Part shown: one piece after another, positions 2,103 through 57,093 of the stretch
Layout of the letters: the number at the start of each line of letters is the position of its first letter
Numbering within the stretch: position 1 is the stretch's first letter
NCBI GenBank assembly: GCA_038087875.1
Contig: CM075995.1
Span: 6,574,001-6,638,000 of the forward strand
From: Malacoraja senta
Lineage: Eukaryota
Reading direction: 5' to 3'
DNA length: 64,000 bases
Notes under the pieces: model-generated
The model's database searches: none
Told to the model about the DNA's origin: nothing
The model's input: only the letters and a program-made list of their open reading frames with translations
Position numbers and translations under genes: made by a program

Positions 2103-5100
2103 AATCGTGTAATTTTTGAGAATGATGAATTATCATTAAATATGAATTATCATTAAATTATCATTAAATATAATTTAAAAAAATTGGATAGGTATATGGA
2201 TGGGAAAGGAATGGAGGGTTATGGTCTGAGTGCAGGTAGATGGGACTAGGTGAGAGTAAGTGTTCGGCACGGACTAGAAGGGCCGAGATGGCCTGTTTCC
2301 GTGCTGTAATTGTTGTATGGTTATATGGTTATATATTTGCCATCGTTATCTATTGTCACTTAATATCTCGCTCAGCTTTAATCATTAGGGTCCAGATACT
2401 AATGTAATTGGCAACATTAGCAGGTGCATGGTTCCTTGAAGGTGGAGTCGCAGGTAGTCAAAAAGGGTGGTCCAAAAGGATTTTGGCACATTGTCCCCAT
2501 CAGTCAGAGTATTGAGTAAAGAAGTTGGGAGGTCATGTTGCACTATGACTCTAGTCTGAAGTCAGCCGGAGGATTAATTGAACGTTGTGCCAAAACTGGT
2601 TCCTATCTACCTCAGTGAGTTGAGCATTATATCAAATATGTTAAACACAGAACACTTTAGTTGTTTGATAACAAGAAATTATCCCTGAATCTGGAGGCGT
2701 CTGTATCTCCTGCGGGGAGAAGAGGGATTGACCGGGGGTGAGACTGGTCCTTGATTAATGCTGCTGGCCTTGCTGAGGCAGCGTGAGGTGTAGACAAAGT
2801 CAATGGAAGGGAGGATGGTTTGTGTGATGGTCTGGGCTGCTGCATCCACAATTCTCTGCACTTTCCTGTGGTCTTGGATGGAGCTGTTCCGATAAAATGC
2901 TTTCTATGGTACATCTGTGGAAGTTGGGCAGAGATGTTGGGGACTTGCCAAATTTCCTACGCCTCCTGAGGAAGTAGAGGACGTTGGTGCGCTTTCTTGG
3001 CTACTCTAGATGTGGCTGGTTAGAGACAAATTACTGGTGATATTTTAGTTTAGTTTAGAGATACAACTAACGTGGAAATCGACCCCAATGGTCCACTGAG
3101 TCCATGCCGACCATCGATCACCCATACACTACTTCCATGTTATCCCACTTGTCGCATCCTACACACTAGGGGCAATTTATAGAAGCCAATTAACCTAAAT
3201 ACCACATTGTCCATGGAATGTGGGGGGAAACCAGAGCACCCGTAAGAAACCCACGCGGTCACGGGGAGAACGTACAAATTCAATATCGACAGCACCCGCG
3301 GTCAGTATAAAACCTGGGTCTCTGGTGCTGCGAGGCAGCAACTCTACCGCTGCACCACTGTACCACCTTGTCAGGCAATCCTTGCTCAGATCACACAAAT
3401 AAAGTTTATTCCTAAGTGTTAGACAATAGACAATAGGTGCAGGAGTTGGCCATTCGGCCCTTCGAGCCAGCACCGCCATTCAATGTGATCATGGCTGATC
3501 ATCCCCAATCAGTACCCCGTTCCTGCCTTCTCCCCATATCCCCTGACTCCGCTATTTTTAAGAGCCCTATCTAGCTCTCTCTTGAAAGCATCCAGAGAAC
3601 CTGCCTCCACCACCCTCTGAAGCAGAGAATTCCACAGACTCACCACTCTCTGTGAGAAAAAGTGTTTCCTTGTCTCCGTTCTAAATGGCTTACTCCTTAT
3701 TCTTAAACTGTGGCCCCTGGTTCTGGACTCCCCCAACATCGGGAACATGTTTTCTGCCACCAGCGTGTTAGAGGCACACGGCATGGAAACAGGCCCTTCT
3801 GACAAAGAGGCCCCATCTAAGTAATCCCATTTGCCAGCGTTTGGCCCATATCCCTCAAAATCCTTTCTACAAGTACCTATAAGAGTACCTATACAGGGAC
3901 AGTTTCCTCCCAGCTGTTATCAGGCAACTGAACCATTCTTACAATAGAAACTTACAAAATTCTTAAGTGGTTGGACAGGCTAGACGCAGGAAGATTGTTC
4001 CCGATGTTGGGGAAGTCCAGAACAAGGGGTCACAGTTTAAGGATAAAGGGGAAATCTTTTAGGACTGAGATGAGAAAACCATTTTTTACACAGAGAGCGG
4101 TGAATCTCTGGAATTCTCTGCCACAGAATGTAGTTGAGGCCAGTTCATTGGCTATATTTAAGAGGGAGTTAGATGTGGCCCTTGTGGCTAAAGGGATCAG
4201 GGGGTATGGAGAGAAGGCAGGTACAGGATACTGAGTTGGATGATCAGCCATGATCATATTGAATGGCGGTGCAGGCTCGAAGGGCCGAATGGCCTACTCC
4301 TGCACCTATTTTCTATGTGTCTATGTTTCTGTTTCTATCAACAACAAGGGAGTCGTCCTGACCTACCATCTACCTCATTGGAGACCCTCGGACAATCTTT
4401 GATTTGACTTTACCGGACTTTATCTTGCACTAAATGTTATTCACGTTATCCCCTTTATCATGTATCTGCACACAGTGGACGGCTCAATTGTAATCATGTA
4501 TTGTCTTTCCGCTGTACACAAAAATGCTGGAGAAACACTTGGGTTTCGGCCCGAAACGTTGCCTATTTCCTTCGCTCCATAGATGCTGCTGCACCCGCTG
4601 AGTTTCTCCAGCATTTTTGTGTACCTGGGATTTTCCAGCATCTGCAGTACCTTCTTAAACATATTGCCTTTCCGCTGACTGGTTAGCACGCAACAAAAAG
4701 CTTTTCACTGTACCTCTGTACACGTGACGAGAAACTAAACTGATCTCTAACCTGTTGGAAAAAGTAAAAAGCTGGCAGGCTTGGAAAGGACTATGCTAAA
4801 ATGGGCTTTGTGAAGTGAATGTTTCTGGACGCGGTCCACAACCTACCATTTGGGTGGTTGGATAGAGAGCAGTAGACGTGCAGGGAAATTATATTCAGGT
4901 GCGAGAATCATGGAGCTATGATACGGATAGGAAAGAAGAACAATAATTGGATGTGTCACGGTGGCACAGCGGTAGAGTTGCTGCCTTACAGCACCAGAGA
5001 CCAGGGTTTTATCCTGATTAATCCCTACGAACCCCATTCTCCTGCCTTCTCCCCATAACCTCTGACACCTGTACAATAGGTGACATTTTGGGTCGAGACC

Positions 5101-5750
5101 CTTCTTCACACGGTTCGTTCCTACGTACGGCAGAGTTTAATTTGACAGTTGAAGGGTAATGGTTCTGCAGTGCTCTCTTGCATTCTCTGAGCCATTGACA
5201 TAGAGTCATAGAGTGATACAGTGTGGAAACAGGCTCTTCGGCCCAACTTGCCCACACCGGCCAACATGCCCCATCTACACTAGTTCCACCTGCCTGTGTT
5301 TGGTCCATATCCCTCCAAACCTGCCCTATCCCTGTACTTGTCTAACTGTTTCATAAATGTTGGGATAGTCCCAGCTTCAACTACCTTCTCTGGCAGCTCG
5401 TTCCATACACCCACCACCCTTTGTGTGAAAAGTTACCCCTCAGATTCCTATTAAATCTTTTCTCCTTCACCTTGAACCTGTGTCCTCTGGTCCTCGATTC
5501 CCCTACTCTGGGCAAGAGATCCTGCGCAATTACCTGATTTATTCCTCTCATGATTTTGTACACCTCTATAAGATCACCCCTCATTCTCCTGCGCTCCAAG
5601 GAATGGAGACAGAGCCTGCTCAACCTCCTTCGATAGCTCAGGCCCTGAACTGAACACAATACTCTAAATGCGGCCTCACCAACATCTTACACAACTGCAA
5701 CATGACCTCCCAACATCTTAACGTCCTCTTTGTTTTCCTCCTCGTTACAG

Positions 5751-5869
5751 CAAGAATACTGGAGGGCGGTGGAGCAGAAGGATTCCCATGTGGCGGTGCA
5801 CTCTGGCAAAGTGGACACGAAAGCACACGGGAGCGGATTCCCAGTTGCCAAATCCGAACCTTTTTCAAG
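5751..5869 (+). CDS. JARID2: JARID2 coding exon (~exon 10), 119 nt
   Basis: ttacag|CAAGAATAC...TCAAG|gtaatg; encodes [39 protein letters not shown](R), matching JARID2 just before the JmjC domain. Confidence 0.96.
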
Positions 5870-7472: not shown

Positions 7473-9134
7473 GTAAGGAATGTGTTTAGTTTAGAGATAC
7501 AGGGCGGAAACAGGCCCTTCGGCCCACCGAGTCCGCGCCGACCAGCGATCACTCCGTACACGAGCACTATCCTGCACACATACTAGGGACAGTTTACAAT
7601 CTTTACCAAAGCCAATTAACCTCCAAACCTGTACGTCTTTGGAGTGTGGGAGGAAACCGGAGCACCCGAAGAAAACTCATGCAGGTCACAGGGGTGAACA
7701 TACAAACTCTGTATAGACAGCTCCCGTTGTCAGGATCGAAGCTGGGTTTCTGGCGCTGTAAAGCAGCAACTCTACCACTGCCTTAGTAACCACCTACCTG
7801 CCTTAGTAACCACCCAGCATGCTTTGGTAAACCAGCATCTTATAGAGGTGTACAATATCATGATTAGAATAGGTCGGGTAGATGCACAGAGTCTCTTGCC
7901 AAGCGTAGGGGCCTCGAGAACCAGAGGACATAGATTTAAGGCAAGGGGTGAAAGATATAATAAAAATCTGAGGGGTAACGTTTCACACAAATTGTGGTGG
8001 GTGTATGGAATGAGTTGCTGGAGGAGGTAGGTGATGCAGGGACTATTACAACATTTTAGGAACCATTTAGACAGGGACATAGGACAGGTTTGGAAAGAAC
8101 TGCAGATGCTGGTTTACACTGAAGCCAGACACAAAAAGCTGGAGTAACTCAACGGGTCGGGCAGCATTTCTGGAGAAATGGGTTCGGTTGAGACCCTTCA
8201 GACTGAGAGTCAGGGGAGAGGGAAATGAGATATGAAAAGGTACATAGAACAAATGAATGAAAGATATGAATGAAAGAATGATATGGATATGAATAATAGA
8301 AGATTAGATAGATATGAGCCAAACGCAGGTAGGTGGGACAAGTGTAGATGGGACGTCACATGTTGGTCGGTGTGGGCAAGTTGGGCCGAAGGGCCTGTTT
8401 TCATGCTGTAAGACTCTATGAGAGGATGAGCAGGCTGGGACTCTATTCCTTGAAGCGCAGGAGGATGGGGGATGATCTTACAGAGGTGTATAAAATCATG
8501 AGAGGAATAGATCGGGTAAACGCACACTCTTGCCCAGAGCAGGCAGGTGGGACAAGTGTAGATGGGTCATGTTGGCTTACAATGTTAATGCCGACCATTT
8601 TTCCACCTCCAGTAGCTATTAGGTTTACCTCTCTTTCCTCCTTCCCATCTTTGCGAAAGAGAGTATTGAGTATAGAAGTTGGACGGTCATGTTGCAGTTG
8701 TATAAGAAGTTGGTGAGGCTGCATTCAGAGTATTGTGTTCAGTATTGGGCACCGTGTTAGAGGAAAGATGTCAAGATGTTGGAAAAGGTGCAGAGAAGAT
8801 TTACGAGGATGTTGCCAGGACTCGAGGGCCTGAGCTACAGCGAGAGGTTGAGCAGGCTGGGACTCTATTCCTTGGAGCGCAGGAGGATGAGCGATGATCT
8901 TATAGAGGCGTAAAAAATCATGAGAGGAATAGATCGGGTAAACGCACAGAGTCTCTTTCCCAGAGTAGGCAGGTGGGACTAGTGTAGATGGGACATGTTG
9001 ACCGGCGTGGGCAAGTTGGTCCGGTGGGCCTGTTTCCACGCTGTATGACTCCATCTCTATCTGCAGTTCTTTGTTATTACCAGAGGGGTGGGTGATTTCT
9101 GAAGAAAATCTTAAATTCCCAAGTCAAATTTTAA

Positions 9135-9281
<147 letters not shown>

Positions 9282-10359: not shown

Positions 10360-10684
10360 AACGGCGGTACGGTGGCACAGCGGTAGAGTTGCTGCCTTAT
10401 AGCGCTTGCAGCGCCAGAGACCCAGGTTCGATCCCAACTACGGGCGCTGTCTGTATGGTGTTTGCACCTTCTCCACGTGACCTGCGTGGGTTTTCTCCGA
10501 GATCTTTGGTTTCCTCCCACGCTCCAAAGACGTGCAGGTTTGTAGGTTAATTGGCTTGGTGTATGTGTAAATTGTCCCTAGTGTGTGTAGGTAGGATTGT
10601 GTTAATGTGCGTGGATCGCTGGACGATGCGGACTCGGTGGGCCGAAGGGCCAGTTTCCACGCTGTGTCTCTAAACTAAACTAAA
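10360..10684 (+). mobile_element. HE1-type tRNA-derived SINE, full length
   Basis: A box TGGCACAGCGG, B box GGTTCGATCCC, conserved centre, CR1-like tail GGGCCGAAGGGCC...(TAAAC)n. Confidence 0.88.
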
Positions 10685-13092
10685 GTCTGACGAAGGGTCT
10701 CGACCCAAAACGTCACCCATTCCTTCTCTCCTGAGATGCTGCCTGTCCCGCTGAGTTACTCCACCATTTTGTGTCTATCTTCGATATAAACCAGCATCTG
10801 CAGTTCCTTCCTACACATTTTTTCTTTAAGATTTGAATTCACCTTTGAGATAAAGTCACCCCTTCCCTGCCTGTTCTGGAATTTGCAAGAAACAGGTTTT
10901 AGTTGTAAACGTGGCTGATAACTGAATTCACTACCTCAGTGTAATTGGACCTAGTTGTGACAAGTCCTCCTAAATTCAGCATTTGGTCATCAAGTGTCTC
11001 CCAAGTACTGGATTGCTAAGATAACATGTGTAGGAAGGAACTGCAGGCGCTGGTTTAAATCGAAGAGAGACACAAAAAGCTGGAGTAACTCAGCGGTACA
11101 GACAGTATCTCTGGAGAGAAGGAACAGGTGACGTTTCAGGTGCGAAGAAAGATCTGTTAAGATAATAGTTCTTTTTAATTCTTCCACCAGATTGACCTGA
11201 AGACCTGCTTCACTGACACAGAAGTGAGTTAAATCTTTTGTCCATATCCTTAAATGACCTTTAAAACTGCTTTAACCAAATGACCAGTTAAGCCAGCATG
11301 GACAGAGCTAAGTATATCTGTGTCAGACCAGCAGTGTGTTCAGGAATTAAAGGACAGCTAAAACTAAATGGAATTTTCCTTTAGTTTTTTTTGTTTTAGA
11401 GATACAGCGTTGAAACAGGCCCTTCGGCCCACCGCGTCCGCGACGACCACTAGTTCTATCCTACACACTAAGATTGGCTTCGGTAAAGATTGTAAATTGC
11501 CCCTAGTGTGTAGGACAGTGCTATTATACGGGTGTGATCACTGGTCGGCGCGGACTCGGTGGGCCGAAGGGCCTGTTTCCGCGCTGTATCTCTACACTAA
11601 ACTCCACATTAAACTAAACTAGAGACCACAGATGCCAATTAACCTACAAACCTGTACGTCTTTGGATACATAGATACATAGACAATAGGTGCAGGAGTAG
11701 GCCATTCGGCCCTTCGAGCCAGCACCGCCATTCAATGTGATCATGGCTGATCATCCCCAATTAGTACCCCGTTCCTGCCTTCTCCCCATATCCCTTGACT
11801 CCACTATCTTTAAGAGCTCTGTCTAGCTCTCTCTTGAAAGCATCCAGAGGACCAGCCTTCTGAGGCAGAGAATTCCACAAATTTACAACTCTCTGGGTGA
11901 AAAAGTTTTTCCTCATCTCAGTTCTAAATGGCCTATCCCTTATTCTTAAACTGTGGCCTCTGGTTCTGGACTCCCTCAACATCGGGAACATGTTTCCTGC
12001 ATCAAGCTTGTCCAATCCATTAATAATTTTATGTGTTTCTATAAGATATCCTCTCATCCTTCTCAATTCCAGTGAATACAAGCCCAGTCTCACCATTCTT
12101 TCATCATATGTCAGCCTAGGATCACCAGAATTAATCTGGTGAACCTATGCTGGACTCCCTCAATAGCAAGAATGTTTTTCCTCAAATTTGGAGTGTGGGA
12201 GGAAACCCTAGCGTCTGGAGAAAACCCACGCAGGTCATGGGGAGAACGTACAAACACCACCCTTGGTCAGGATTGAACCTGGAGATGTAAGGCAGCAACT
12301 CTACCGCTGTGCCACCATGACGCATCCAATTATCGCTCTTTTTGTCCTATCTGTATCATAGCTCCATGATTCTCGCACCTGAATATAATTTCCCTGCACA
12401 TCTACTGCTCTATATCCGACCACCCAAATGGTAGTTTGTGGACCGCATCCAGAAACATCACAGTTTCAAAGTAATCACAGTTACTGATTTTTAGGATTAG
12501 CTTCAGGATCAACTACCAAGTGAACATCTTTGGAGGGTGGGAAGGAAACCGGTGCACCCGGAGACAACCCACGCAGGTCACGGGGAGAACGTACAAATTC
12601 CGCACAGACAGCACCCATAGTCAGGTTGGAACCTGGGTCTCTGGCGCTGTGAGGCAGCAACTCGACCACTGCGCCACCGTAGACTTGATGCCTCGTCACT
12701 TTCCCAAAACTCCTCCCCCTCCTTCCAAATTTCAGTTCTCCGAACAGTTTTTTCTCCTGAATTGTTTCTCATTTTTGTTTGCAATCTGCTCACGTGTGAC
12801 TCACTGCAGTTGACAGCGTCTTTGTCTTAATTCAGTGCTTATTGATATGCATGTGGGTGGAAAGTGGCTTCCTGGTCAGACCTGACGCCAGAATCGTAAG
12901 GTCCGATAAGGCTCAGTGCTGCGGAGATTTGCCGATTTGATCCTTAGAGTCGCACAGGGTGGAAACAGGCCCTTCGGCCCAACCTGCCCACACTGGCCGG
13001 CCAACTTGCCCCATCTACACAAGTCCCACCTGCCTTCAGTTGGTCCATATCCCTCCAAACCTGCTCTATCTATGTACCTATCTTAATTGGTT

Positions 13093-13543
13093 TGGGATAA
13101 GGGAAACGAGAGATATACACGGTGACGTGGAGAGATAAAGAACAATGAATGAAAGATATGCAAAAAATTAACGTTGCTTACAGCCCAGTGGTATGACTAT
13201 TGATTTCTCTCACTTCAGGTAGCCCCGGCATTCCCTCTCTCTCTATCCCTCGCCCACCAAAGTCACACTAGCTTCTCAATTTCACCCAACAAACAGCTAA
13301 CAATGGCCCGTTTACTTTATCATCGTTACTTTCTTGCATATCTTTCATTCATTGTTCTTTATCTCTCCACATCATCGTCTATATCTCTCGTTTCCCTTAT
13401 CCCTAACCAGTCTGAAGAAGGGTCTCGACCCAAAACGTCACCCAGTCTTTCTCTCCGGAGATGCTGCCTGTCCCGCTGAGTTACTCCAGCTTTGTGTTTC
13501 TATCTTCTGTTTAGACCAACATCTGCAGTTCCTTCTTACACAT
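13093..13543 (+). mobile_element. Penelope-like element 3' end with inverted partial LTR
   Basis: 13178-13222 encodes LQPSGMTIDFSHFR* (GIY-YIG endonuclease C-terminus); hammerhead-like core at 13412; 5' part is an inverted copy of the UTR; TSD TATCTTAATTG. Confidence 0.85.
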
Positions 13544-14439
13544 GCCTATATCTTAATTGCTTCTTAAACGTTGTGATAGACCCAGCCTCAACTACCTCCT
13601 CTGACAACTTGTTCCATACACCCACTTCCCTTTGTGTGAAATGGAAGTGGGTGTATGGAACAAGTTGCCAGATTCCTATTAAATATTTCCCTCTTCGTGT
13701 TAAACCTATGTTCTCTGGTCCTCTATTCCCCTACTCTGGGCAAGAGACTCTGCGTCTTACCCGTTTTATTCCTCTCTTGATTTTATATACTTCTATAAGA
13801 TCAATTTTGTGCCATCCTAGCAAGTTGCTAGGCATCAAACCCAGGTATATTTACAAAATCTTTTTTTTTAATCTGAAATTTTTTTTTTAGAACAAGTGCT
13901 TTTTTAGATCCCCACTTAATTTTTTTTTTCATTGTGAATAGTTTCAGCTCCCTTCAAGACTGACGTTCAGCTTAGTTTTGTGTAGTTTACAGATACAGCA
14001 TGGACACAGGTCCTTTGGCCCACCGAGTCCACGCCGACCAACGATCCCCGCACATTGACATTATCCAACACACACAAGGGACAATGTAAAAACCCACAGG
14101 CCTTTGTGTTTTTGACGTGGGCAAAGTGTGCATTCCTGAGGTCGTGATGAACATAAAATGGATTCAGCGAGCATTTCTCATCTTGGCCCTCTGCCCTCAC
14201 TCTTAGTTGCCTTTGCTCGATGGGGAAACAAGGGTCTTTCAATGAACTTTGTCCGATGCCCACAACTTCAAAGATGTCCAGCGACATTTGGGAACCACAA
14301 CTTGAAACACTTCCAATGTTTTATGTAAACAAAGTAAACATTAATAATACATTCACGTGGTTGATCATGAGATAGTGAACATTTACACTCGCTTGTCTCA
14401 GCAATTCAGATTATGTTAATGACATGCCAACTATAAATG

Positions 14440-14480
14440 TTATATATATATATAGATATATAATATTTATATATATCATG

Positions 14481-14513
<33 letters not shown>

Positions 14514-14895
14514 TCACATCTGAAGGTTTCGACCCGAAATGTCACCCATTCCTTCACTCCAGAGATGCTGCCTGTCCCGCTGAGTTACTCCAGCTTTTTG
14601 TGTCTATACATATACACACACATACAAATATATATATATATATACATATATACATACACATACACACACATATACCTCCCCTGATATCAGTCTGAAAAAG
14701 GCTCTCGACCCGAAACGTCGCCTATTCCTTCTCTCCATAGATGCTGCCTCACCCGCTGAGTTACTCCAGCATTTTGTGTAGAACTACACATATATATAGT
14801 GTGTGGGTGGGTGGTTGGGTGTGTGTGCGTGTGGGGGTGGGTGTGGTTATGTGTGTGTATGTGTATGTGTGGGTGTGTGTGTGGGTGTGTGTGTT
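14440..14895. repeat. TA/CA/GT microsatellite patchwork with two Penelope-derived inserts
   Basis: Dinucleotide runs visible directly. Confidence 0.85.
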
Positions 14896-15244
14896 TTCTG
14901 CAGAGGATGAAGGCTTTTGGTAGAATTTTCACCTGAAATAATGCCCAGGTGAAATAAATGTGGTCAGGTCGGGGAGAGTTCCCCCCGCCACGGGTGAGGA
15001 GGAGGCTGTAGACCCCCACCAGCAGGACCAAAAACAAGACCTGTCAAAGGGCAGATGTGCTCCTAGCGAGCCAACGGCCACCCACACCTCAGTAGAAGTT
15101 GGGATCACTGTCGCACACAGCATTGTAAGGCACCGTGCCCGTTGATGTTTTCAACGATGATGATGATGATGGTTATAAAATAGCCCTTTTACAAACTACG
15201 TTGAGAAAATTGCAAGTTTTCTTGCCCTTTAAAAAAAAAGACTC

Positions 15245-15432
15245 TGTGTGTATGGGCATGTGTTTGTGCGTGTGTGTTGCGAGTGTGTGTGTGCATGTGT
15301 TTGCGCGTGTGTGTATCAGTGCATGTGTGTGCCTGAGTGTGTGTGTGCATGTGTTTGCACGAGTGCATCTTCGCATGTGTATCTGTGTGTGTGTGCATGT
15401 GTTGGTGTGTGTGCGTGTGTCTGTGTGTGTGC
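15245..15432. repeat. Degenerate (GT)n microsatellite
   Basis: Visible directly. Confidence 0.9.
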
Positions 15433-15700
15433 GCAGCATTCAATGACAAAAACTGTCACCAGTCTTCGAGTCGGGCCTACAGGGATTCGGGGCGGGTTGT
15501 CGCTGGCTGGTGTTCCTGCAGGTTTGATGAGACGATGTGAACCGTGGCTGCTGCGGGGGATACAGAGATAGATGGCTGCAGCCTTCGCCAGCACCACAGG
15601 CAGAGAGGGGGTGTGCAGAGCTGCACTGGTACACTTGTGTCCTGTTACCTGCGGGTGTTGGACCGTGACATTTGCAGCTGTCTTCCTTTCTCATATTCAG

Positions 15701-15806
15701 GTATTGTATTCCTGCTGAGGAGAAGACCAAACTCGATGAAGTGGTGCACACCCTACTCCAAGCTAACGGCACGTCAGGGCTCGACATGCTTGAAAGTAAT
15801 ATCATG
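15701..15806 (+). CDS. JARID2: JARID2 coding exon (~exon 13), 106 nt, JmjC
   Basis: ttcag|GTATTGT...ATCATG|gtaaga; (W)[35 protein letters not shown]. Confidence 0.96.
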
Positions 15807-16620
15807 GTAAGAGACGGTCTATCGCTGGTACCTGCCTCTGACTAGTTCAGAGATACAGCACGGAAATAGGCCCGTACACTAACACTATCCCACACACTAG
15901 GGACAATTTACAATTTTTACCGAGACCAATTAACTTACAAACCTTCATAAGTGATAGGATGAGAATTAGGCCATTCGGCCCATCAAGTTTACTCTGCCAT
16001 TCAATCATGGCTGATCTATCTCTCTCTCAACCCCATTCTCCTACCTTTTCCCCATAACCCTACACCCGTACTAACCAATAATCTATCTCTCTGCCTTAAA
16101 AATATCCATTTAAGCCTCCACAGCCGTTTGTGGCAATGAATTCCACAGATTCACCACCCACTGACTAAATACATTTCTCCTCATCTCCTTCCTAAAAGAA
16201 CGTCCTTTAATTCTGAGGCTGTGACCTCTAGTCCTAGACTCTCCCACTAGTGGAAACATCCTCTCCACATCCACTCTATCCAAGCCTTTCACTATTCTAA
16301 TGAAGAATATTATAATTATAATATATTATACAATAAATTATAATATACAACACACCATTGACCTCCATTGTTCTAATGTGTAGGAAGGAACTGCTTAAAA
16401 TGAAGATAGACACGAAAAGCTGGAGTAACTCAGCGGGGCAGGCAGCGGCTCATGGGAGAAGGAATGGGTGACATTTTGGGTTGAAACCCTTCTTCAGACT
16501 GAAGAAGAGTCTCGACCCGCAAAACGTCACCCAATCCTTCTCCCCCGAGATGCTGCCAGTCCCGCTGAGTTACTCCTTGTTGTGTCCTATCATCCATTGT
16601 TGTGATGTTTGCTTTGGCAG

Positions 16621-16803
16621 ATTTCTCCTGAGGTGCTATGCAAGGAAGGGATCAGGGTATGTCGCACTGTGCAGCAGAGTGGGCAGTTCATCGTGTGCGC
16701 TCCTGGGGCATTCGTCTCCAAAGTCTGCTGTGGGTACAGTGTGTCGGAAGCCGTGCACTTTGCAACCACACAGTGGCTGAAAACGGGCTTCGAAGCTGCT
16801 AAG
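16621..16803 (+). CDS. JARID2: JARID2 coding exon (~exon 14), 183 nt, JmjC
   Basis: ggcag|ATTTCT...GCTAAG|gtaaag; [61 protein letters not shown]. Confidence 0.97.
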
Positions 16804-17454
16804 GTAAAGAGTTTGCGTCCCCGTACACCCAACTCCAACCGCAAAGTGACCGTATGTGTGTGTGTGTGTGTTAGGTGCACGAGTCATACTATAGACTTTA
16901 ACAGAGATACTTCGCGGAAACTGGCCCTTCGGCCCACCGGGTCCGCGCCGACCAGCGATCACCCCGTGCACTAACAACAATCCTCCACGCACCAGGGACA
17001 ATTTACAATTTTACCGAAGCCAATTGACAACTGGCAACTCGTTCCATACACCCACCACCCTTTGTGTAAAAAAAGTTACCCCATAGTGTCCTATTGAATA
17101 TTTCACCCCTCTCCTTAAACCTATGCCCTCTGGTCCTCGATTTCCCCTACTCTGGGCAAGAGACTCTGCGTTTACCCGATCTATTCCTGCAATGATTTTT
17201 TGATCCATCACAGTCTGGTGGTGATGAGAGGCTGGTGTTAATCCTTGCTCTGGTCAAAGGAGGAGAAGGAATGGGCCAGGTAGGGTGTGGTGAGATGGCG
17301 AGAGAGGATGCTGTTGATCCTGACTACTGTGAGATGGGGGCAGGACGGGCGCTGTGCCAGTGAGACGGGTACGTGGGGGAACAGCCCCGGCCCCATAGGT
17401 GTGAGGGGAGATGGCCCTTGCCATGCCGTGGGGAGTGTTCAGGTCAGCCCTAGT

Positions 17455-18105
17455 TCACAAGTTATAGGAGTAGAATTAGGCCATTCGGCCCATTGAGTCT
17501 ACTCCGCCATTCAATCATGGCTGATCTCTGCCTCCTCGTCCCATTTTCCTGCCTTCTCCCCATAACCCTTGACACCCGTTCTAATCAAGAATCTATCTAT
17601 CTGCCTTAAAAATATCCACTGACTTGGCCTCCACAGCCCTCTGTAGCAATGAGTTCCACAGATTAACTACCCTCTGACTAAAGAGGTTACTCCTCACCTC
17701 CTTTCTAAAAGAACACCCTTCAATTCTCAGGCTGTGACCTCTGGTCCTAGACTCTCCCACCGGTGGAAACATCCTCTCCACATCCACTCAATCCAAGCCT
17801 TTCATTATTCTGTAAGTTTCAATGAGGTCCCCCCTCAACCTTCTAAACTCCAGCGAGTACAGGCCCAGTGCTGTCAAGCGCTCATCATATGTTAACCCAC
17901 TCATTCCTGGAATCATTCTTGTAAATCTCCTTGGGACCCTCTCCAGAGCCAGCACATCCTTCCTCAGATATGGGGCCCGAATTTGCTTACAGTATTCCAA
18001 ATGCGGCCTGACCAGCGCCTTATAGAGCCTCAGCGTTACATCTCTGTTTTTGTATTCCAGTCCTCAATATAAATGCTAGCATTGGATTTGCCTTCCTTAC
18101 TATTG
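17455..18105 (-). mobile_element. CR1 LINE 3' fragment
   Basis: ORF2 C-terminal motifs on minus. Confidence 0.88.
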
Positions 18106-18617
18106 ATAGTGGCATAGTGGTGGGTAGAGCTGCTGCTTCACAGCGCCAGAGTTCAACAACAGTCATAGAGTTATACTGCGTGGAAACTGGACATTTGGCC
18201 CAACTTGTCAATGCCCACCAACATGTCCCTGAATCTGGACGTGTGCACTTTCGCACTTCTGTACCTCTTCCCCGATGGGAGAGGGGAGAAGAGGGAGTGA
18301 GACTGGTCCTTGATTATGCTGCCGGCCTTGCCGAGGCAACGTGAAGTGTAAATGGAGTCAATGGAAGGGAGTTTGGTTTGTGTGATGGTCTGGTGTGGGC
18401 TGCGTTCACAATTCTCTGCAATTTCCTGCGGTCTTGGATGGAGCTGTTCCCAAAGCCAAGCTGTGATGCGTCCCGATACAATGAATTTCCACGGCGCATC
18501 TGCAGAAGTTGGCGAGTGTTGTCGGGGACATGCCGAACTTCCTCAGCCTTCTCAGGAAGTTGCTGTGTTTTTTTCCTCATCAGGGCTAAAGCAAGTGTTG
18601 TTGTTCTGCCCACACAG

Positions 18618-18748
18618 GACTTGAAACGACGATATATCGCTAACGCTTTCTCGATGGAAAAACTACTTTACCTTATGGCGACTGCGGAGTCAAAGCGGGA
18701 CTGTGGAACAACACTAAGCCACATCTCTTCACTTTTGCAAGAACTCAG
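18618..18748 (+). CDS. JARID2: JARID2 coding exon (~exon 15), 131 nt
   Basis: cacag|GACTTG...CTCAG|gtaggt; DLKRRYIANAFSMEKLLYLMATAESKRDCGTTLSHISSLLQEL(R). Confidence 0.95.
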
Positions 18749-20790: not shown

Positions 20791-20941
20791 TTTGGACTTT
20801 GTCTCCGGCTGATAACAGCTGGGAAAGAAACCCTCCTGAATCTGGAGGTGTGAGTTTACACCAGGCACAGACACAGCATGCTGGAGTAACTCAGCGGGTC
20901 ATGCAGCATCTCTGGAGAAAAGGAATTGGTGACGTTTTGAA

Positions 20942-22113: not shown

Positions 22114-22360
22114 TTTTAGACCCTGTGCCTGCAACCAGCATTTGCAATTCACTCTTATGCGTTTTGACACTTCTGTACCTCTTGCCTCTTGGCATTCCTT
22201 CTGTACGTCGGGCAGAAGGTACAGAAGTTATAAGCACGCACCACCAGACTCGGGTGTGGGAAGCAACTGCAGATGCTGGTTTAAACCAAAGTTAGACATA
22301 AAATGCTGGAGTAACTCTGCAGGACAGGCAGCATCTCTGGAGAGAAGCAATGGGTGACGT

Positions 22361-22388
22361 CTGAAGAAGGGTCTCGACCCGAAACGTC
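22361..22388 (+). ncRNA. Minimal hammerhead ribozyme core (Penelope-associated)
   Basis: CTGAAGAAGGGTCTCGACCCGAAACGTC at the centre of a fold-back insert (~22254-22452). Confidence 0.65.
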
Positions 22389-22764
22389 ACCCATTCCTTC
22401 TTTCCAGAGATGCTGCCTGTCCCGCAGAGTTACTTCAGCTTTTTGTGTCTAACACCAGACTTAGGAACAGCTCCTTCCCCTCTGTAATCAGGCTTCTGAA
22501 GCTAGTATCCTTCCATAAGCTAGGATACTGTCCGATTCACCTTTACCCTATTGCGGACATTGGACTTTGTCTATGGAACTGATGTACTACAATGCTGAGA
22601 ACTAGATTCTGACTGCTGTATCTTCCCCTCTGCGCTACCTATAGTTGTTGTGACTCGATTATGTTCATTTATGGTATTATTAGCTGATCTGATTGGATTG
22701 CATGCAAAGCAAAGCTTTTCACTGTACCTCAGTACACGTGACAATAATAAACCTGAGCCACAAA

Positions 22765-43114: not shown

Positions 43115-43899
43115 CTGCAAAAATGATCAACATCAAACACATTAAAACCACAGCAGAACACAAAAGATTGATGCACGTGATGGTGAGGCCACATTTGGAG
43201 TACTGTCAGTGGGTCAGGCAGCATCTGTGGAGACAAAGAATGGGTGACGTTTCCGGTCTAGGCCCTTCTTCAGAATGAGAGTCCAGTCTCAGTTTGATGA
43301 TGGGTCTTGGATTCTCAGTCTGTTCTACATTTTCCTTGACCTTTGATCTCTCGTTTTCACACCTTACCCTTCCATATCTCTGTCTCCCTCTCCCCTGACT
43401 CTCAGTCTGGCGAAACATCACCCATTCCTTCTCTGCAGAGATGCTGCCTGTCCCGCTGAGTTACTCCAGCTTGTGTCTATCAAAAGGATAACTAGGTTGC
43501 TTTACATACCACTGCCTCCCTGTCAGAAGGATGCGGCAAGCGGTGATTACAGTCACAATCCCTTGGCGTTAATGTGTCAAGCGCTGCTTCTGAAAAATAT
43601 TAACCAACCCACCAAACGCTGCCTCACTAGCACTATCCTGCACTGTCCTAGGGACAACTTACAATTTTTACTGAAGCTAAATCAATGTACAAGCCTGTCC
43701 GTTTTTGGAGTGCAGCACCCGGGGAAATCCCACGCAGGTCACGGGGAGAACATACAAACTCCGTACCGACAGCACCCGTAGTCAGGATCAAACCCGGGTC
43801 TCTGGCGCTGTGAGGCAGCAGCTATACCGCTGTGCCAGCATGCCACCTAATCTCTTATCGTGGCTTTTGTTCATCCATCCATCACTGGGAACCTTCTCT

Positions 43900-44870: not shown

Positions 44871-46111
44871 CAGTGTGCTCGCGTTACAGCAGTGGTGCAA
44901 GACTGAAGGATAGTGAACTTGGTTTAGTTTATTGTCACGTGTATCGAGGTACAGTGTGCAGCTTTTGTTGCGTGCTAAGCTAGTCAGCGGAAAAACTGTT
45001 AGCAATATTACCCTTGGGTTGCTGTGCTTTCACTGTGTGCCTGTATAGCCAGTGCCCTCTTAATTATTGGTTAGGTAATGTCTTGAAGCTATTTAGCAAC
45101 AAGGCTCCTCTTCAAAAAGAAAACTATTTTTAGATACGACACGCCGGGTTTAACAGACTGAGCATAAAAATTGTCTGGATTTCAGAAGAAGCAACAATTA
45201 ATTAATGTTGACACACGGACTCTACAAGTTGCCGTTTGGATCGAGAAACAATTTGCTGGGGAAACTCAGCAGCATCATGGAAGGGAAGTGTACAGTCGAC
45301 TGAGGAGAGTTGGTTTTTATTCTAGTTTTAGAGATACAGCGCGGAAACAGGCCCTTCGGCCCACCGAGTCCGTGCCGACATGGAAACATAGAAAATAGGT
45401 GGAGGAGGAGGCCATTCAATATGATTATGGCTGATCATCCAGAATCAGTACCCCGTTCCTGTTTTCTCACCATTTCCCTTGATTCTGTTAGAGAGCTATG
45501 TCTAACTCTCTTGAATACATCCAGTGAATTGGCCCCCACTGCCTTCTGTGACAGAGAATTCCACAGCTCTCTGGGTGAAAAGGTTTTCCTCATCTCAGTC
45601 CAAAATGACCTACCCCTTATTGTTCAACTGAAGAGGTAGTTGAGGCTGGGACTATCCCAACGTTTAAGAGACAGTTAGGCAGGTTCATGGATATAGGCCA
45701 AACGCAGGCAGGTGGGACTAGTGTAGCTGGGACATGTTGGCCAGTGTAGGCATGTTGGGCCGAAGGGCCTGTTTCCACGCTGTATCACTCTAAAAGGGCA
45801 GAATAGTCTATCTTGGATCAGTTTCTGGCAGTGTTACAGTTCTGGTATCAGCTTATGCAATTCTGCAAATTACCCCATAAAATAGCAAAGAACCTGCTTA
45901 TTTCCAGTGCTCTCTGCCACTATTAACTGGAAGATATAGTACGTGATGTCTTAGCAACATTTTTCCTTTGGGTCCTCCACCCCCACCTCCTTTATCTGAT
46001 TTCATGCTTCAGTTTTCTTTCCTATTAGAAGTTAAAGACTTAATGGGAACATGATGGGCAACGTTTCACTCAGTGGGTGGTGGGTATATGAGCTGCTGGG
46101 GGAAACTGCTT

Positions 46112-46490
46112 GTGGAGGAAGGAACTGCAGGTGCTGGTTTACACCGAAGATAGAGACAAAATGCGGGAGTAACTCAGCGGGTCAGGCAGCATCTCGGGAG
46201 AAAAGGAATAGGTGCCGTTTCGGATCGAGACCCTTCTTCAGATTGAGGGTCAGGGGAGGGGGGGACAGAGATATGGAGGGGTAAGGTGTGAAAACACAGA
46301 TCAAAGGGGACGGCGGTCAAGGAAACATTGTTAGTTGAGGGGAAGGTGACAACGAGGCGTACAATCAGTAAATTTTAATCAGGAGGACAGTGGAACTAGT
46401 CGGAGAACTAAATAGGATGAAGAACAAAGAGAGAGAGAGGCAAAGCAAGAGTTACTTGGAGTTAGAGAAACCATATTCGGTGAACCGCTG
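46112..46490 (-). mobile_element. Penelope-like element 3' end
   Basis: Degenerate endonuclease end, UTR, CTGAAGAAGGGTCTCGATCCGAAAC core and the common tail, on minus. Confidence 0.7.
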
Positions 46491-48308
46491 AGTTAGGGGA
46501 GGTAGTTGTTGGTCCTGACCTCCCATCTACCTCATGTAGAAAAGTGTGAAGTCATGCATTTTGGTAGCAGGAATAAAGGCGTAGACTATTTTCTAAATGG
46601 GGAGAGGAACGGATGTCAAGGGTTACGGGGAGAAGGCAGGAAAATGGGATTAGGAGGCAGAGATCAGCCATGAGTGAATGGCGGAGTAGACGCGATGGGC
46701 CGAATGGCCTAATTCTACACCTTTAACTTGTGAACGTGATTCAGAAATTCGGAGTACTGGTGCAGGATTCCCAAAAGGTTAATTTGCAAGTTGAATTGGT
46801 AGTAAGGAAGGCAAATGCAATATTAGCATTTATTTCAAGAGCATAGAGTATAAAAACAGGGATGTAATGCTGAGGCTTTATCAGGCACTAGTCAGACAGC
46901 ATTTGGAGTAATGTGAGAAGTTAGGTATTTTTAAGGTGGAGATGGACAGATACTTGATTAATCTGTGTGTCAGGGGTTATGGGGAGAAGGGTTATGGGGT
47001 TGAGAGGGAAAGTTAGATCAGCCATGATTGAATGGTGGAGTAGACTCAATGTGTACTTCGGAGTAGCGCAATGTCTACTACCAATTCGGAATAATGGCCG
47101 ACATCTGCTCCTATGACTTATGAACATAACTCTTTTATAGGAGAGGCATAGATATGGCAAAAAGACAATCTTTCCCCCCAAAGTAAGAATTTAAAACTAG
47201 TGGGCATAGGTTTAAGTGAGAGGGGGCAGATTTAAAAAGGACCCTAGAGGCAACTTCTTTACACAGAGGGACATTGAGTGCTGGTGAAAGTGGTAGAGTG
47301 GGAGAGTCTAGGACCAGAGGGCACAGCCTCAGAATAAAAGGACGTACCTTTAGAATGGAGATGAGGAAGAATCTCTTCAGTCAGAGGATGGTGAATCTGT
47401 GGAATTCATTGCCATAGACGGCTGTGGAGGCCAAGTCAGTGTCATACACTTGTTAAAGAGGAGATTGATTGGTTGGTGATTAGTAAGGACATTTAGTTTA
47501 CTTTAGTTGATTGTCACGTGTACCGAGGTGCAGTGAAAAGTTTTTTTGTTGCGTGCTAACCAGTCAGCGGAAAGACAATACATGATTACAATCGAGCCAT
47601 TTACAGTCAAAGGTTGCGGGGAGAAGTCAGGAGAATGGAGTTGAGAGGGAAAAATAGATCAGCCATGATCGAATAGCGGAGTAGACTTGATGGGACGAAT
47701 AGTCTAATTCTGCTTTTATGTCTTATGGTACAATTATAACACTTGGGCAGGCTCATGGATAGGATAGGTTTGGAGGGATATGGACCAAGGCAAGTGGGAC
47801 TATCTCAGTTAGGCAATCTGGTCAGCATGGATGAGTTGGGCCAAAGGGCCTGTTTCCATGCTGTATAACTATGGCTTCAGGATACATTGAGGGAAATAAA
47901 AGCACTTTTGCCCTTAACTCCCATTTTGCTTTTTCTTTGAAAATATTTAAGCATGATTTCATTTTTGCAGAGTGCTGGTGCAGGACCATTTTGTGATAAA
48001 ATATAACTTATTCTCCAGATGTTTGTGGAATAAATCTGGTAAAAATAAACTGAAATCTATTCTGCAATGCTCAGATGTGTTTATCCTTGCGATGACCTGC
48101 GGGCATCTCATAAGGTTGAATGCTTTCATCTGGAAGAGCAGAGTCAAAAGTTATTTTTACATTTATGGATGAGGAAAAATAATTGCAGAATTAAAGAAAA
48201 AGAACTGGACTGGAAAGTGGAGAAATAAAAGCCGGAGAGCAGTGCTGAACTACCATCTACCTCTCTGGTGACCCTCGGAGTATCCATGATCGAACTTTAC
48301 TAGCCTTA

Positions 48309-50856: not shown

Positions 50857-53669
50857 TGCTTTGGCCTGAAATGGCCTGTTTCCACGCTGTATCTTCAGAA
50901 ACTAAAATATAAAATCTGCTTTCAACCAGTACCTTGCAATGCAGAATGTTTCTTTGTTAGTGAATTTGACATTAACTTATGGTTTGAACAATTATTCACA
51001 CTTTAGACTTTAGAGATACAATGCGGAAACAGCCACGCCGACCGGTGATCACCCCGTACACTAGAATAATTCGTACACACTCGAGACAATTTATAATTTT
51101 ATCAAAGCCAACTAACCCACAAACCCCCATGTCTTTGGAGTGTGAGGGGAAACCGGAGCATCCTGAGAAAACCCAAGCGGTCACAGTGAGAACGTACCCG
51201 CAGTCAGGATTGAACCTGGGTCTCTGGCGCTGCAAGGCAGCAATTCTACCGCTGCGCCACTATAACACTCAACTGTGTAATTTTTACAATTTACAGTTCA
51301 GTTTAGTTTATTGTCACGTGTACCAGGGTACAGTGAAAAGCTTTTGTTGCGTGCTAACCAGTCAGCGGAAAGACAACACATGATTACAATCGAGATATGT
51401 GATACACGATACACTCCGTTAGCTGTTTACAAGCTGTGGATTAGTTTAGTTTAGAGATACAGGAAACGGGCCCTTCGGCCCACCGAGTCCGCACTGACCA
51501 ACGATAATCCGTTCTCACTGATTCTATATGATTCCACTTTCAGACAGCGCCCGTAGTCAGGATCGAACCCGGGTCTCTGGCGTTGAGAGGCAGCAACTCT
51601 AACGTTGAGCCACCATGCTGCCCTAATGTTGGAATTAACATTATATATTAAAGCTTTAACCAGAGGCATATATTTAAACCAATTTACTTTCATAAATCTA
51701 AACAGCCAAAAACCAATATTGAATAAAATGAGCTTTTCATATTAATTTAACCTGCCTGTTAGGTAGCCAATAATAGAATCTTTAACATTTTCAGCTGTAA
51801 CAATTTGAAGCCAAATTATTTTTAGAGATGCTTTAGACTTTAGACATTAGAGATACAGCGCGGAAGCAGGCCATTTGGCCCATTCGAGTCGGCACTGAAC
51901 AGTAATCAGCCTGTACACTATCCTACACACTAGGGACAATTTTATAACTTACCGAAGCCAATGAACCTACAAACCCGTACGTCTTTGGAGTGTGGGTGGA
52001 AACCGGAGCACCCGGAGAAAACCCACACGGTCACAGGGAGAAGGTACAAACTCCGTACAGACAGCACCCGCAGTCAGGATCGAACCCGGGTCTCTGGCGC
52101 CGTATGGCAGCAACTCTACCTGCCCCTGAAGCTCTGCTATTTTATGAGAATAAGAACATAAGACAGGCCCTTCGGCCACCATGCCTGTGCCGATAAGACT
52201 ATCCCTTATCTGCCTGCACATAATCTATATCCCATACTCCTTGCATATGCATGTGCCTATCCAAAAGTCTATTAAATGCCACTGTTGTGTCTGTCTCAAC
52301 TACCTCCTCCAGCAGCTCGTTCCATACACCTATCACCCCCTGTGTGAAAAAGTTACTCCTCAGGTTCTTATTAAATCTTTCCCCCTTCACCTTAAACCTA
52401 TGTCCTCTGGTTCTCGATACCCCTACGCTGGGCAAGAGACTCTGTGCGTCTACCTGATCTATTCCTCTCATGATTTTGTACACCTCTATAAGATCACCCC
52501 TCGTCCTCCTGTGCTCCAGGGAATAGTTCCAGCCTGTTCAACCTCAGCCCTATAGCTCAGGCTCTCGGAGTCCGGGCAACATCCTTGTAAAATTTCTCTG
52601 CACCCTTTCCAACGTGACTATTTCAAGGTTTGGATGTTTCCACAAGGAGCGATGAGTCACTGACTGTTTCAGTTTATGCCCCAATGCAGACGGCACAGAT
52701 GAAACCTGTTTGGAGATTTGGACAGGCTACCCACAAAGTAGACAGTGGGAAGCAGTCAAAGTTGATGTGCATTCTTCCATGTAATTCAATCCAATGGAGG
52801 TTTTCATTCAATGTGAGATCGAGAAGTATACTTAAAGCAATTTGCAAGTCTGCATCATAACTGCCTCTACATCTCGGTGGAAAATTGCACATTAAATTCA
52901 CTCTTTTGCCTCTGTTGCATGTCCTCCAGGGGACATTAATGATGTTTTGGGAATTTCCTGATCTCTTGGTGTGGGGGGGGGGGGGGGGGGTAGTCTGGAA
53001 GCGAGAGAGGGCCAGGACAAATCAGATGAAGAAGGGTTCCGACCCAAAACGTCACCTATTCCATTTCTCCAGAGAAGCTGCCTGACCCGCTGAGTTACTC
53101 CAGTATTTTGTGTCTATCCAAATATATACAATTCTTCTCCTGACTAACAAAGACATGTATAATTAATTGCCTCTGGGACAATTTACAATTCTACCCAAGC
53201 CCCAAACACACACACACACACACACACCTGGTTGCTTACGTTTTCCCTCATGGGTTTATTAAGCAAAATGACATTATCCATAGGGTTCCATTGATGGAAC
53301 ATCACAGTCAGTAACAAAGCTATTCTCAGATCATATGTCAGTCATAGAGTGATACAGTGTGTGGAAACAGGCCCTCCGGCCCAACGTGCCCACACCGGCC
53401 AACATGTCCCAGCTACACTAGACCCACCTGCCTGCGTTTGGTCCACATCCCTCCAAACCTGTCCTATCCATGTACCTGTCTAACTGACAATACCTAACGC
53501 AACATGGTTGATTCCATGGTCATTACGGTTTAAGAGTTATGAGTTTATTGTCACGTGTACCGACGTGTACAGTGAGGAGCTTTTGTTGCGTGCCAAACGG
53601 CCAGCGGAAAGATAATACATGATTACAATCGGGCCATCCGCAGTGTAGAGATGCATGACAAAGGGTCTT

Positions 53670-53972: not shown

Positions 53973-54783
53973 TAAGAAGTGTTGCTGTCAGAGTAGAGGT
54001 TTAACAGTGGAGCGATTGTAATGCGTGATTGCAGTCCCACTTCTGGGGCTAGCACACAAAGAGTGGCCTGGGTTCGTTCTCTCGTGTGTCAGACGATGTC
54101 GCTCGCTGTTGGCGTCTGTCGTTCCGTCGTGGCCTGGGTTAGGCGCCATCTTGGATTCAGCAATAGAGTCTGTTCCATACAGACTATGCATAAAAATCAA
54201 TCTTCCATTCACTGGACTATCTGGAGAAATCGCCCCACTTTAAATTGGAGAGATTGTTGTGGGTCTCGACCCGAAACGTCACCTATTCCTTCCCTCCAGA
54301 GATGTTGCCTCAGAGTCCCGCTGAGTTACTCCAGCAATTGTGACTATCCTCGGTGTAAACCAGCACCTGCCGTTCCTTCCTACACAGTAGTTTCCACTTT
54401 GTTCTAGACGCCTTCATCCTAAATTGGTCTACCTTCTGAGAATGGAATATGTCATTGCCACATGTGACAGGGCACAGTGAAATCCTTTGCTTGCATATCC
54501 AGGGTATGCAAATAGCCGCCATTTACGGCCACGTCACAAGTGCCCCCGCCGGCTCCTCCTTTGTTCTACCCCACCCTCCCCCACAGTGGTTCCCCCACAC
54601 CAGCTTGAAGTTTGTTAGCCGCCCCCTTCCCCCCCGGTCCTCCATTCCCCATTGTTCTTCCCCCTCCCATTTGGTGGTCCCACCACGCCGGGTCCTGCAT
54701 TGTTCATTGGTCTTCCCCCTCACTCATGGCGGTCCCCCCATGCCCATGTTTTGTTCCAAAGACTGATGTTACCTCAGACTTAC

Positions 54784-55640: not shown

Positions 55641-56075
55641 TCTTTTTGCAGTATTACATACTTGCAGCAGCACAACAGAATATGTAAACATAGAAAACGA
55701 AATAATAAACAGAATAAGTTCTTTATGAAATATATATATATATAAATGCACACACACATATACACACATGCATACACACACACACACACACATACGATCA
55801 CATTGAATGGCGGTGCTGGCTCGAAGGGCCGAATGGCCTAGTCCTGCACCTATTGTCTATTGTCTACATATTTTGTTGTGCTGCTGCAAGTAAGAATTTA
55901 ATTGTTCTGTTTGGGACATATGACAATAAAGACTCTTGAAATATTGTTGAAGACACAGAAACATTAAAAGTTATACTACAAGGTACACCGACTTGCATTG
56001 TGTGAATATCATAGCAGAGGATATTTGAGGACAATTTGCTTTGATTTCTGATGCTAAAGTAATGGAAAGTCTTGC

Positions 56076-56231
56076 CTCGTCTCTGCGCGATCTGCAAATA
56101 CCCCGTGGACAGGTACTGCTCCAGGTCCTGCTGAAAGGCCTCTTCAAAAAACTTCTGCCGCTCTTTCAATTTCTGTTGCTGCGAGTTCTCCATGTCACGA
56201 ACCTTATGGGCATGTACTTCATCCAACTTAA
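56076..56231 (-). CDS. DTNBP1: DTNBP1 (dysbindin) coding exon (~exon 8), 156 nt
   Basis: Minus strand tttcag|TTAAGTTG...AGACGAG|gcaaga; [51 protein letters not shown](E); GC donor. Confidence 0.93.
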
Positions 56232-57093
56232 CTGAAACAGGAGGAAAAGATCATTGACATGAGCCATGAGCAAAGAAATAGGAACTACAAATTGCCAGGA
56301 CTTCATACAATGCAAACAATTCATAAAAGTTTCAATCGTAACCTGGTTGAGTTGAGTTTATTATTGTCACGTGTACTGAGGTGCAGGGCAAAGCTTTTTG
56401 TTGCGTGCCCTCCGGTCAGCGAAAAGACTAGACATGTTTACCACCCACAGATACAGGATAAAGGGCATAATGTTTAGGGCAGGAACCTGACTAACACTCG
56501 GGCTAAAGAATGGATGAAATGTTATACTCTGAAATGTACGAATATATCTCGAACGAAGTTTTTTATCTTAATAAATGTTTCCATTCTTCTTTAACTATCT
56601 TTTTCTTTTCTGTTTTCTTTTTTTTTGTTTTGTTTTTTTTCTTTCTCTTTTCTTTCTTTACTTCATCTATCTTTTTAGTTCTATCTAGTTTAAAAAAAAA
56701 CAAAAAAAGGCAAAAGGTATTGGAGACAATGTAATAATAATTGACAATATTATCAATTTAAAAATGAAAGACTGGTAATGATGATAATATGTTGTGTACT
56801 TATCTCCAATAAAAAATATTTTCAAAAAAATAATAATGTTTAGTGCAAGATAAAGTCCAATAAAGTCCGATTAAAGATAGGTGTAGAAAGGAACTGCAGA
56901 TGCTGGTTTACACAGAAGATAGACACAAAATGCTGGAGCAACTCAGTGGGTCAGGCGGCAAGTCTGGAGAAAAGGAATAAGAGGTGTTTCGGGACGAGAC
57001 CCTTCCCTGAACCAGAAACACCTCCGATTAAAGATCGTTTGAGGGTTTCCAATGAGGTAGATAGTAGTTCAAGACCGCTCTCTAGTTGTGATG

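Follow-up and report, generated by a model that had tools for sequence, protein, structure and literature searches.

Short Penelope-like inserts with inverted arms in a 64-kb window of the Malacoraja senta genome and their possible priming at both target ends

The window analysed in this study is a stretch of 64,000 nt from Malacoraja senta (GenBank assembly GCA_038087875.1, contig CM075995.1, positions 6,574,001 to 6,638,000 of the forward strand). It consists of repeat-rich animal DNA with one exon each for a JmjC domain and for dysbindin, and short inserts derived from a Penelope-like element (PLE) are scattered through it. Its best matches among named proteins come from two skates. The structure of these inserts and the way in which they were made are the subject of this report. 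Positions are those of the whole stretch, and all copy counts cover this one window unless related sequencing runs are named. A profile search with the module of ~130 bp common to the inserts gave 44 hits, which make up 6.2% of the window. The module comprises a minimal hammerhead motif and a one-sided tail of ~37 nt, and it is numbered here with C3 of the hammerhead as 0, so that the predicted cut falls after +27 and the cut-site zone was scored as +24 to +32.

End modules of a Penelope-like element

The 13-kb insert is continuous from the last 14 codons of a PLE open reading frame (ORF) through the 3' untranslated region (UTR) into the module. It was 82.6% identical across 86 nt (33271-33356) to a parent-type PLE ORF fragment at 33271-33495 on the reverse strand, which holds 62 C-terminal codons and the start of the 3' UTR. 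A Pfam search gave no hit for the product of this fragment (P0001) on its own. Its sequence matched the C-termini of proteins of 609-816 aa with a reverse transcriptase (RT) and a GIY-YIG endonuclease (EN), including P0150 and P0089, in which RVT_1 and GIY-YIG passed, or came close to passing, the Pfam cut-offs. The Penelope origin that an earlier note, made from the letters of this DNA alone, had proposed for the inserts is borne out by this continuity and by the C-terminal match. No RT of this family was found in the 64-kb window, and the module had no match as an ORF N-terminus among 158 proteins. A Cys-rich linker between RT and EN, judged by eye, was present in the nearest proteins (P0007, P0008, P0043, P0132, and P0150), suggesting that the parent element belongs to the Neptune clade. 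On these sequence comparisons, the inserts are identified as 5'-truncated end modules (pseudo-long terminal repeat (pLTR) plus tail) of a PLE encoding RT and GIY-YIG. The general PLE layout has been described (PMC8557442, PMC8969392). Three predicted host proteins (P0002, P0003, and P0012), one of them named neuromedin-U receptor 1, were seen to carry a PLE endonuclease C-terminus, which is either an annotation artefact or exonisation.

The hammerhead carried by the module is a prediction. The core, stem II, and the cleavage triplet were read off the alignment and were intact in 7 of the 16 arms spanning the motif. The core is of the minimal type I; a bulged base precedes stem II, helix III is reduced to a palindromic remnant, and the genomic sequence provides a helix I of only about 2 bp. 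The assignment is a motif call and not a library hit, because no hammerhead was detected with Rfam at gathering scores or, for 10600-24700, by E-value, where only hairpin look-alikes were returned. The stability of the fold predicted for one copy was unremarkable (z = -1.33). ARAGORN, which would miss a decayed tRNA head, found no tRNA in the window, and the 5' part of the module is accounted for by PLE UTR and hammerhead. Head-to-tail tandem arrays of the module, which define retrozymes, were absent from the window.

Inverted arms and target-site duplications

In the earlier note, direct repeats had been described on both sides of six inserts of ~140-460 bp. All six repeats were found, beginning at 4501/4664, 13079/13549, 19255/19460, 22242/22453, 36352/36542, and 56866/57023, with scores of 9-13; in a null made of 756 mismatched flank pairs, a score of at least 9 had P = 0.008. 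The inserts between them measured 148, 459, 195, 202, 177, and 144 bp, respectively, in agreement with the size given. The repeats are true target-site duplications (TSDs), as paralogous host copies cross each site with the motif present once. Host hits that span the site, without a second motif copy, numbered 6 of 16 at 4.5 kb, 12 of 29 at 13 kb (two of them heavily gapped), 14 of 14 at 19 kb, 3 of 9 at 36 kb (one ungapped), and 4 of 5 at 56.9 kb; at 22 kb the count was 0 of 1 at first scoring and 3 of 6 under relaxed scoring. Furthermore, both TSD copies at 13, 36, and 56.9 kb carry substitutions not seen in the best-aligned paralogues, and therefore the duplication postdates the divergence of the host copies. 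For orthologous sites, contigs of 4 of 21 runs were compared with 15900-28300; among the 15 joints listed of ~60,600, a set dominated by repeat paralogues, none skips a cassette, and no listed contig piece bridges a cassette by 31 letters per side. The repeat at 4.5 kb proved longer than described, reaching 15-16 nt, and the TSD length, given previously as 9-14 bp, varies between about 8 and 16 nt, overlap and filler making the exact edges indistinct. Four further TSD-flanked inserts that had escaped the earlier note lie at 11.0, 16.4, 24.4, and 61.9 kb.

Eight of the TSD-flanked inserts have two arms joined head-to-head, of which one (the tail arm) carries the tail and the other (the second arm) is inverted. 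On the forward strand, the minor-subfamily insert at 4500-4677 has its TSD at 4500-4514/4663-4677, an inverted arm of 23 nt at 4515-4537, and a tail arm at 4541-4662. The insert at 13079-13559 (TSD of 11 nt) has an inverted arm at 13090-13176, which is a copy of the 3' UTR (-91 to -3), and a tail arm at 13176-13542; that at 24350-24584 (TSD of 11 nt with one mismatch) has a second arm at 24361-24458 (-2 to +95) and a tail arm at 24456-24571 from +15. On the reverse strand, the insert at 16364-16601 consists of a tail arm (16378-16501) and a second arm (16497-16594) with a palindromic junction at the 5' edge of the core, within a TSD with a 9-nt core (16 nt with two mismatches). The insert at 19255-19469 lies in the end of a long interspersed element (LINE) ORF and has a TSD of 10 nt, a tail arm from +20, and a second arm of -1 to +93; in that at 22242-22461 the corresponding values are 9 nt, +23, and -2 to +91. 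At 36352-36554 the TSD is an exact 13 nt, both arms are of the minor subfamily (10 shared derived sites), and the palindromic centre lies in stem II, and at 61917-62186 the TSD has an 8-nt core (13 nt counting overlap with the tail) and both arms reach about -20. The remaining two TSDs flank single tail arms on the reverse strand. The insert at 56866-57035 (tail arm 56881-57005) has an exact 13-nt TSD. That at 11014-11165 (tail arm 11028-11141) has an 11-nt TSD with one mismatch (11014-11024/11155-11165; p = 0.009 anchored, 0.09 blind), and its 13-nt inner piece is not significant as a second arm. An inverted second arm had been described as usual for the units; it was clear in five of the six inserts first described, and the 17-nt inner piece at 56.9 kb was not significant (p = 0.22).

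A miniature inverted-repeat transposable element (MITE) family, that is, a cut-and-paste DNA element derived from a PLE end, would account for the symmetric hairpin with matched ends at 57264-57458, a tail-less head-to-head pair in which both arms run from -4 to +95. This pair has no TSD that could be found; the TSDs elsewhere vary from 8 to 16 nt, termini are asymmetric and copy-specific, and every junction is different. Neither fixed symmetric termini nor a fixed TSD length was found, and we agree with the earlier note that the inserts are hardly conceivable as MITEs. Its further claim of one fixed end holds for a shared end motif only, since this motif is degenerate, occurs on either strand, and is often followed by 0-7 filler nt. 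The discrete cassettes of which it speaks are not pre-formed: the arm-arm junction differs in every insert, indicating that the cassettes were assembled at insertion and not copied as units.

The presence of a TSD was tied to that of a second arm. Among 19 tailed copies, in which both were sought blind within 150 nt, a strong second arm (score of at least 38) was found in nine, and a TSD was detected in 8 of these 9 versus 1 of the 10 others (Fisher p = 0.001). This blind test supersedes an earlier tally of 10/11 versus 0/7, for which the boundaries at 11 and 56.9 kb had been picked with knowledge of the TSD. The lack of a TSD in most solitary tailed copies had been overlooked before. In all eight TSD-flanked two-arm copies, the far TSD copy lies within 0-9 nt of the outer end of the second arm.

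Arm ends and priming of complementary DNA

The ends were tabulated for the 38 arms with an alignment score of at least 50 among the 44 profile hits. The 3' ends were bimodal, with 18 at +122 or beyond (13 of them at +129), 15 at +85 to +102, and 5 earlier. The two classes, at about +92 (median) and +129, are about 37 nt apart, a distance that equals the PLE tail. No 3' end was called at +103 to +121 in the 38 arms; this zone is not absolutely empty, because the copy at 20.9 kb may reach about +105 by host overlap. As for the 5' ends, 11 were at -4 to +1, 12 at +3 to +23, 11 further upstream, and 4 downstream. The 5' end of the 19-kb tail arm appears in this table at +8, which is an alignment artefact; parsing of the whole insert gives +20. 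The cluster at -4 to +1 exceeded a uniform null (scan P = 5e-5), although its 11 ends are not all independent because four come from two palindromic junctions. None of the 38 arms had its 5' end in the predicted cut-site zone; 34 read through the cut site, and 22 reached the 5' edge of the core or beyond. The absence of 5' ends at the cut site, together with the cluster before the core, indicates that the template was uncleaved RNA, as for Anolis Poseidon in vitro.

The cluster at -4 to +1 lies past the entire motif, on an initiator-like heptamer, and the solitary copies have no common upstream exon-like sequence. Both observations speak against the view that the pile-up of 5' ends marks not the start of the RNA but a stall of the polymerase at the folded or protein-bound hammerhead, or else a splice acceptor. 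That view, which would fit either way of priming discussed below, is nevertheless a serious possibility, even if we lean away from it: the 12 ends at +3 to +23 fall inside the motif, both UTR types have a pyrimidine tract and an AG shortly before the core, and helix I marks the end of the D. virilis intron (PMC4209133). An internal promoter with an initiator (Inr) and a downstream promoter element (DPE) has been reported in a PLE (PMC2377424).

The outer end of the second arm was found at +83 to +98 in 7 of the 8 TSD-flanked cassettes, the exception being the 13-kb arm, which ends at -3. Since solitary tail-less copies end at +87 to +92, this point looks like a second priming site. At 19, 22, and 24.4 kb, the second arm reaches -1 or -2, so that it holds 17-25 nt missing from the tail arm, with which it shares 2-3 letters at the joint; fold-back of the tail-arm strand could not have copied this sequence. 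In addition, the second arm and the TSD overlap by 1-3 letters in all eight cassettes (sum 14; simulated P of 0.006-0.05, by hand assignment).

Taken together, these findings favour a scheme in which complementary DNA (cDNA) is primed at both ends of a staggered cut and joined head-to-head by microhomology, the inserts being dead insertions of an endonuclease-positive, Neptune-like PLE, each built at its own site; we give this reading as a whole a probability of slightly under 0.6. It is favoured because of the arm and TSD counts and because a Poseidon protein was found in vitro to cut both strands and to extend them from two internal start sites. In this scheme, the GIY-YIG nuclease would make a staggered cut in the target, and reverse transcription primed by one of its ends would begin at the start site at the end of the tail. 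A second cDNA would be primed by the other end on sense RNA of common origin, in most cases at the inner start site (+85 to +98) and aided by 1-3 nt of pairing. Both cDNAs would copy uncleaved RNA toward its 5' part, often running out at about -4 to +1, and their ends would be joined via 1-4 nt of microhomology or short hammerhead palindromes, after which gap filling would leave the TSD. If the second end were not primed, repair would mostly leave a single arm without TSD. The strict rule that two pLTR copies of one mRNA template the two arms was also considered and fails, as both arms pass -20 at 13 and 62 kb.

Several observations weigh against two-ended priming. With a looser arm cut-off (p<0.05), a TSD accompanied the arm in 8 of 12 copies versus 1 of 7 others (p = 0.057). 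A TSD occurs without a significant second arm at 56.9 kb and, weakly, at 11 kb, and two arms occur without TSD at 27.8 and 57.3 kb. The arms at 13 kb and 27.8 kb and the 23-nt arm at 4.5 kb misfit a simple pattern of start and run-off. The numbers are small and come from a single window, with junction microhomologies assigned by hand, and Poseidon initiated without target homology in vitro (Frangieh et al., PMC11167929), which differs from the overlap found here. Furthermore, the two arms tend to be of one subfamily (they agree at site +31 in 8 of 8 pairs, at +39 in 7 of 8, and at +59 in 4 of 8), and the centres at 16, 36, and 57.3 kb are palindromic, as would be expected if one cDNA stopped near the hammerhead, folded back on a palindrome, copied itself, and joined the other target end, with later deletions blurring the centre. 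Such fold-back was the idea of the earlier note and is close to that of Arkhipova et al. 2013; self-priming has been proposed in PMC3846280, together with a TSD-less insertion joined by microhomology. A head-to-head joint at the 5' edge of the core, with both arms extending to -2, also occurs in four related runs (in 23, 51, 53, and 33 contigs; among the 15 joints listed of ~60,600, with the letters between the sides unseen).

Fold-back requires a later deletion in 3 of the 8 cassettes, and asymmetric deletion of a palindrome centre could indeed mimic the three asymmetric cases. It gives no reason for the copy-back to stop at +83 to +98, where solitary tail-less copies end, and the pair at 57.3 kb could not arise from a tail-primed strand unless the tail was lost. 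We consider fold-back unlikely. The part of the earlier proposal that stands is that breakpoints lie near the hammerhead (23 of 38 5' ends at -4 to +23). Abortion of a single cDNA at the hairpin, followed by re-priming, is not well supported, given that 34 of 38 arms cross the cut site and that three second arms extend further 5' than their tail arms. The inserts at 27.8 and 11 kb, with their ambiguous parses, were left out of the evidence against fold-back. The divergence between arms does not separate one template from two, as pairs apart from that at 36 kb share 0-2 derived sites, the same as random pairs.

The letters shared by second arm and TSD, with further gapped similarity at 19 and 36 kb, would also be accounted for by a repair patch, in which the free target end meets any sense strand at a microhomology and is extended there by a polymerase of the host or the element, and no dedicated second start site exists. 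The short or off-site arms at 13, 27.8, and 4.5 kb, and possibly 46 kb, would fit this explanation as well. We regard it as quite improbable, since 7 of 8 outer ends fall within one 15-nt zone of a module of ~130-370 nt.

Extending two-ended priming, one may tentatively suppose, at odds that we place somewhat short of even, that PLE integration is normally two-ended, with priming at the two internal start sites, that the TSD is the footprint of a second priming that succeeded, and that the ~130-bp copies are run-off products of RNA starting at the initiator before the core. If true, the one-sided tail of PLEs, their inverted pLTR, and their patchy TSDs would all follow from one rule, which would replace the self-priming model.

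Remaining copies and comparison with known systems

Other copies are simpler or less regular. A tail arm with a 19-nt inverted arm (-5 to +14) lies at 27750-27890 on the reverse strand, without a significant TSD. A complex head-to-head insert at 43196-43481, for which no TSD was found, shows repeated restarts near the 5' edge of the core; the two or three short restarts of hammerhead 5'-edge sequence between its arms suggest repeated template switching. The type example of solitary tailed copies is at 10684-10817 on the forward strand (-3 to +129, no TSD), and others lie at 8091-8276 (-), 23664-23786 (+), 46112-46473 (-), 54261-54385 (+), 59821-59921 (-), 62254-62345 (-), and 59363-59396 (-). 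The 46-kb copy has by eye, with weak scores, a possible second arm of 15 nt and a possible 5-nt duplication (46093-46110, 46479-46495), and its 7-nt tail-side filler resembles the tail, possibly a false start. Solitary tail-less copies are typified by 53027-53118 on the forward strand (+1 to +92), with others at 14519-14607 (end at +91), 14678-14779 (+87), 24089-24180 (+87), and 38188-38263 (+88); one of them (24075-24195) has a possible duplication of 14 nt around it (score 8, p = 0.009), along with 13 nt of filler. Joints at 27097 and 27785, in which the 3' microsatellite tail of a LINE leads into the module near the tail-less end of the latter, occur in 19-27 contigs per related run and may reflect microsatellite targeting or just the point where paralogue alignment stops.

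A near-perfect inverted repeat of ~25 bp with a short loop at 13599-13673, in a host LINE copy 40 bp from the 13-kb insert, looks like a local inverted duplication and gave sub-threshold microRNA hits. A 35-bp tandem repeat (2.3 copies, 57181-57262) adjoins the symmetric pair at 57264-57458. The JmjC-domain exon (16606-16971, +) and the dysbindin exon (55867-56250, -) are convergent and belong to genes that we take to be JARID2 and DTNBP1, respectively; the 16.4-kb insert stops ~40 bp ahead of the former.

In L1 twin priming, the second target end primes an inverted cDNA, the junction shows microhomology, the TSD is kept, and the two parts have no RNA overlap. The present inserts resemble it in the inverted cDNA from a second end, the junction microhomology, and the retained TSD. 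They differ in that one stretch of the RNA is represented in both long arms, and therefore two templates or the reuse of one would be needed.

Published insertions of endonuclease-positive PLEs (PMC3846280, PMC8557442) likewise have a tail-less head-to-head arm, a tail (30-40 bp there, ~37 nt here), and TSDs of variable length, and they include some junction palindromes and a TSD-less type joined by microhomology; inverted 5'-truncated pLTRs with an optional tail and TSDs of 8-10 bp are described in PMC3846280. Unlike them, nearly all copies here lack an ORF and measure 130-460 bp. Very short PLE insertions, with a median of 128 bp, have been reported (PMC9977147). The Anolis Poseidon protein (PAc) cuts and extends both strands in vitro, with uncleaved RNA as its template and an internal start site at either end of the tail (PMC11167929). 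These two RT start sites lie downstream of the hammerhead as in our inserts, 85-92 nt past the cut there and about 65 and 102 nt here. The present family differs in the Neptune-like linker of its nearest proteins, and joined inverted products are not shown in the available text of PMC11167929.

The minimal hammerheads of metazoan PLEs (PMC4209133) share with the predicted motif the type I core, the bulged base before stem II, and the palindromic helix III remnant; the motif here differs in its helix I of about 2 bp and in having no Rfam hit. Pairs of minimal hammerheads on opposite strands, 100-700 bp apart, were described in the same paper. Non-LTR retrozymes, which are tandem PLE derivatives (bioRxiv 10.64898/2026.07.22.740005), are similarly short, non-coding, hammerhead-bearing, and PLE-derived, and they differ in forming head-to-tail tandem arrays.

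The available parts of the published PLE accounts examined mention neither an association of the TSD with the second arm nor second arms that outreach the tail arm. A literature search, whose coverage excluded most subscription papers and several core PLE reviews, did not find two-ended PLE priming or the TSD-arm link stated. The origin of inverted pLTRs and one-sided tails is described as unresolved in PMC8557442 and PMC11167929. The inserts can be mistaken for MITEs or, as Rfam hits below threshold show, for microRNA hairpins, and so run a risk of mis-annotation. The element type and the insert architecture were already known, and what is added here is a modest lead, namely a testable argument for two-ended priming, small in scale and drawn from a single window. 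So abundant a family lends itself to a count of junction types, and the predictions of two-ended priming can be tested in the existing in vitro Poseidon assay.

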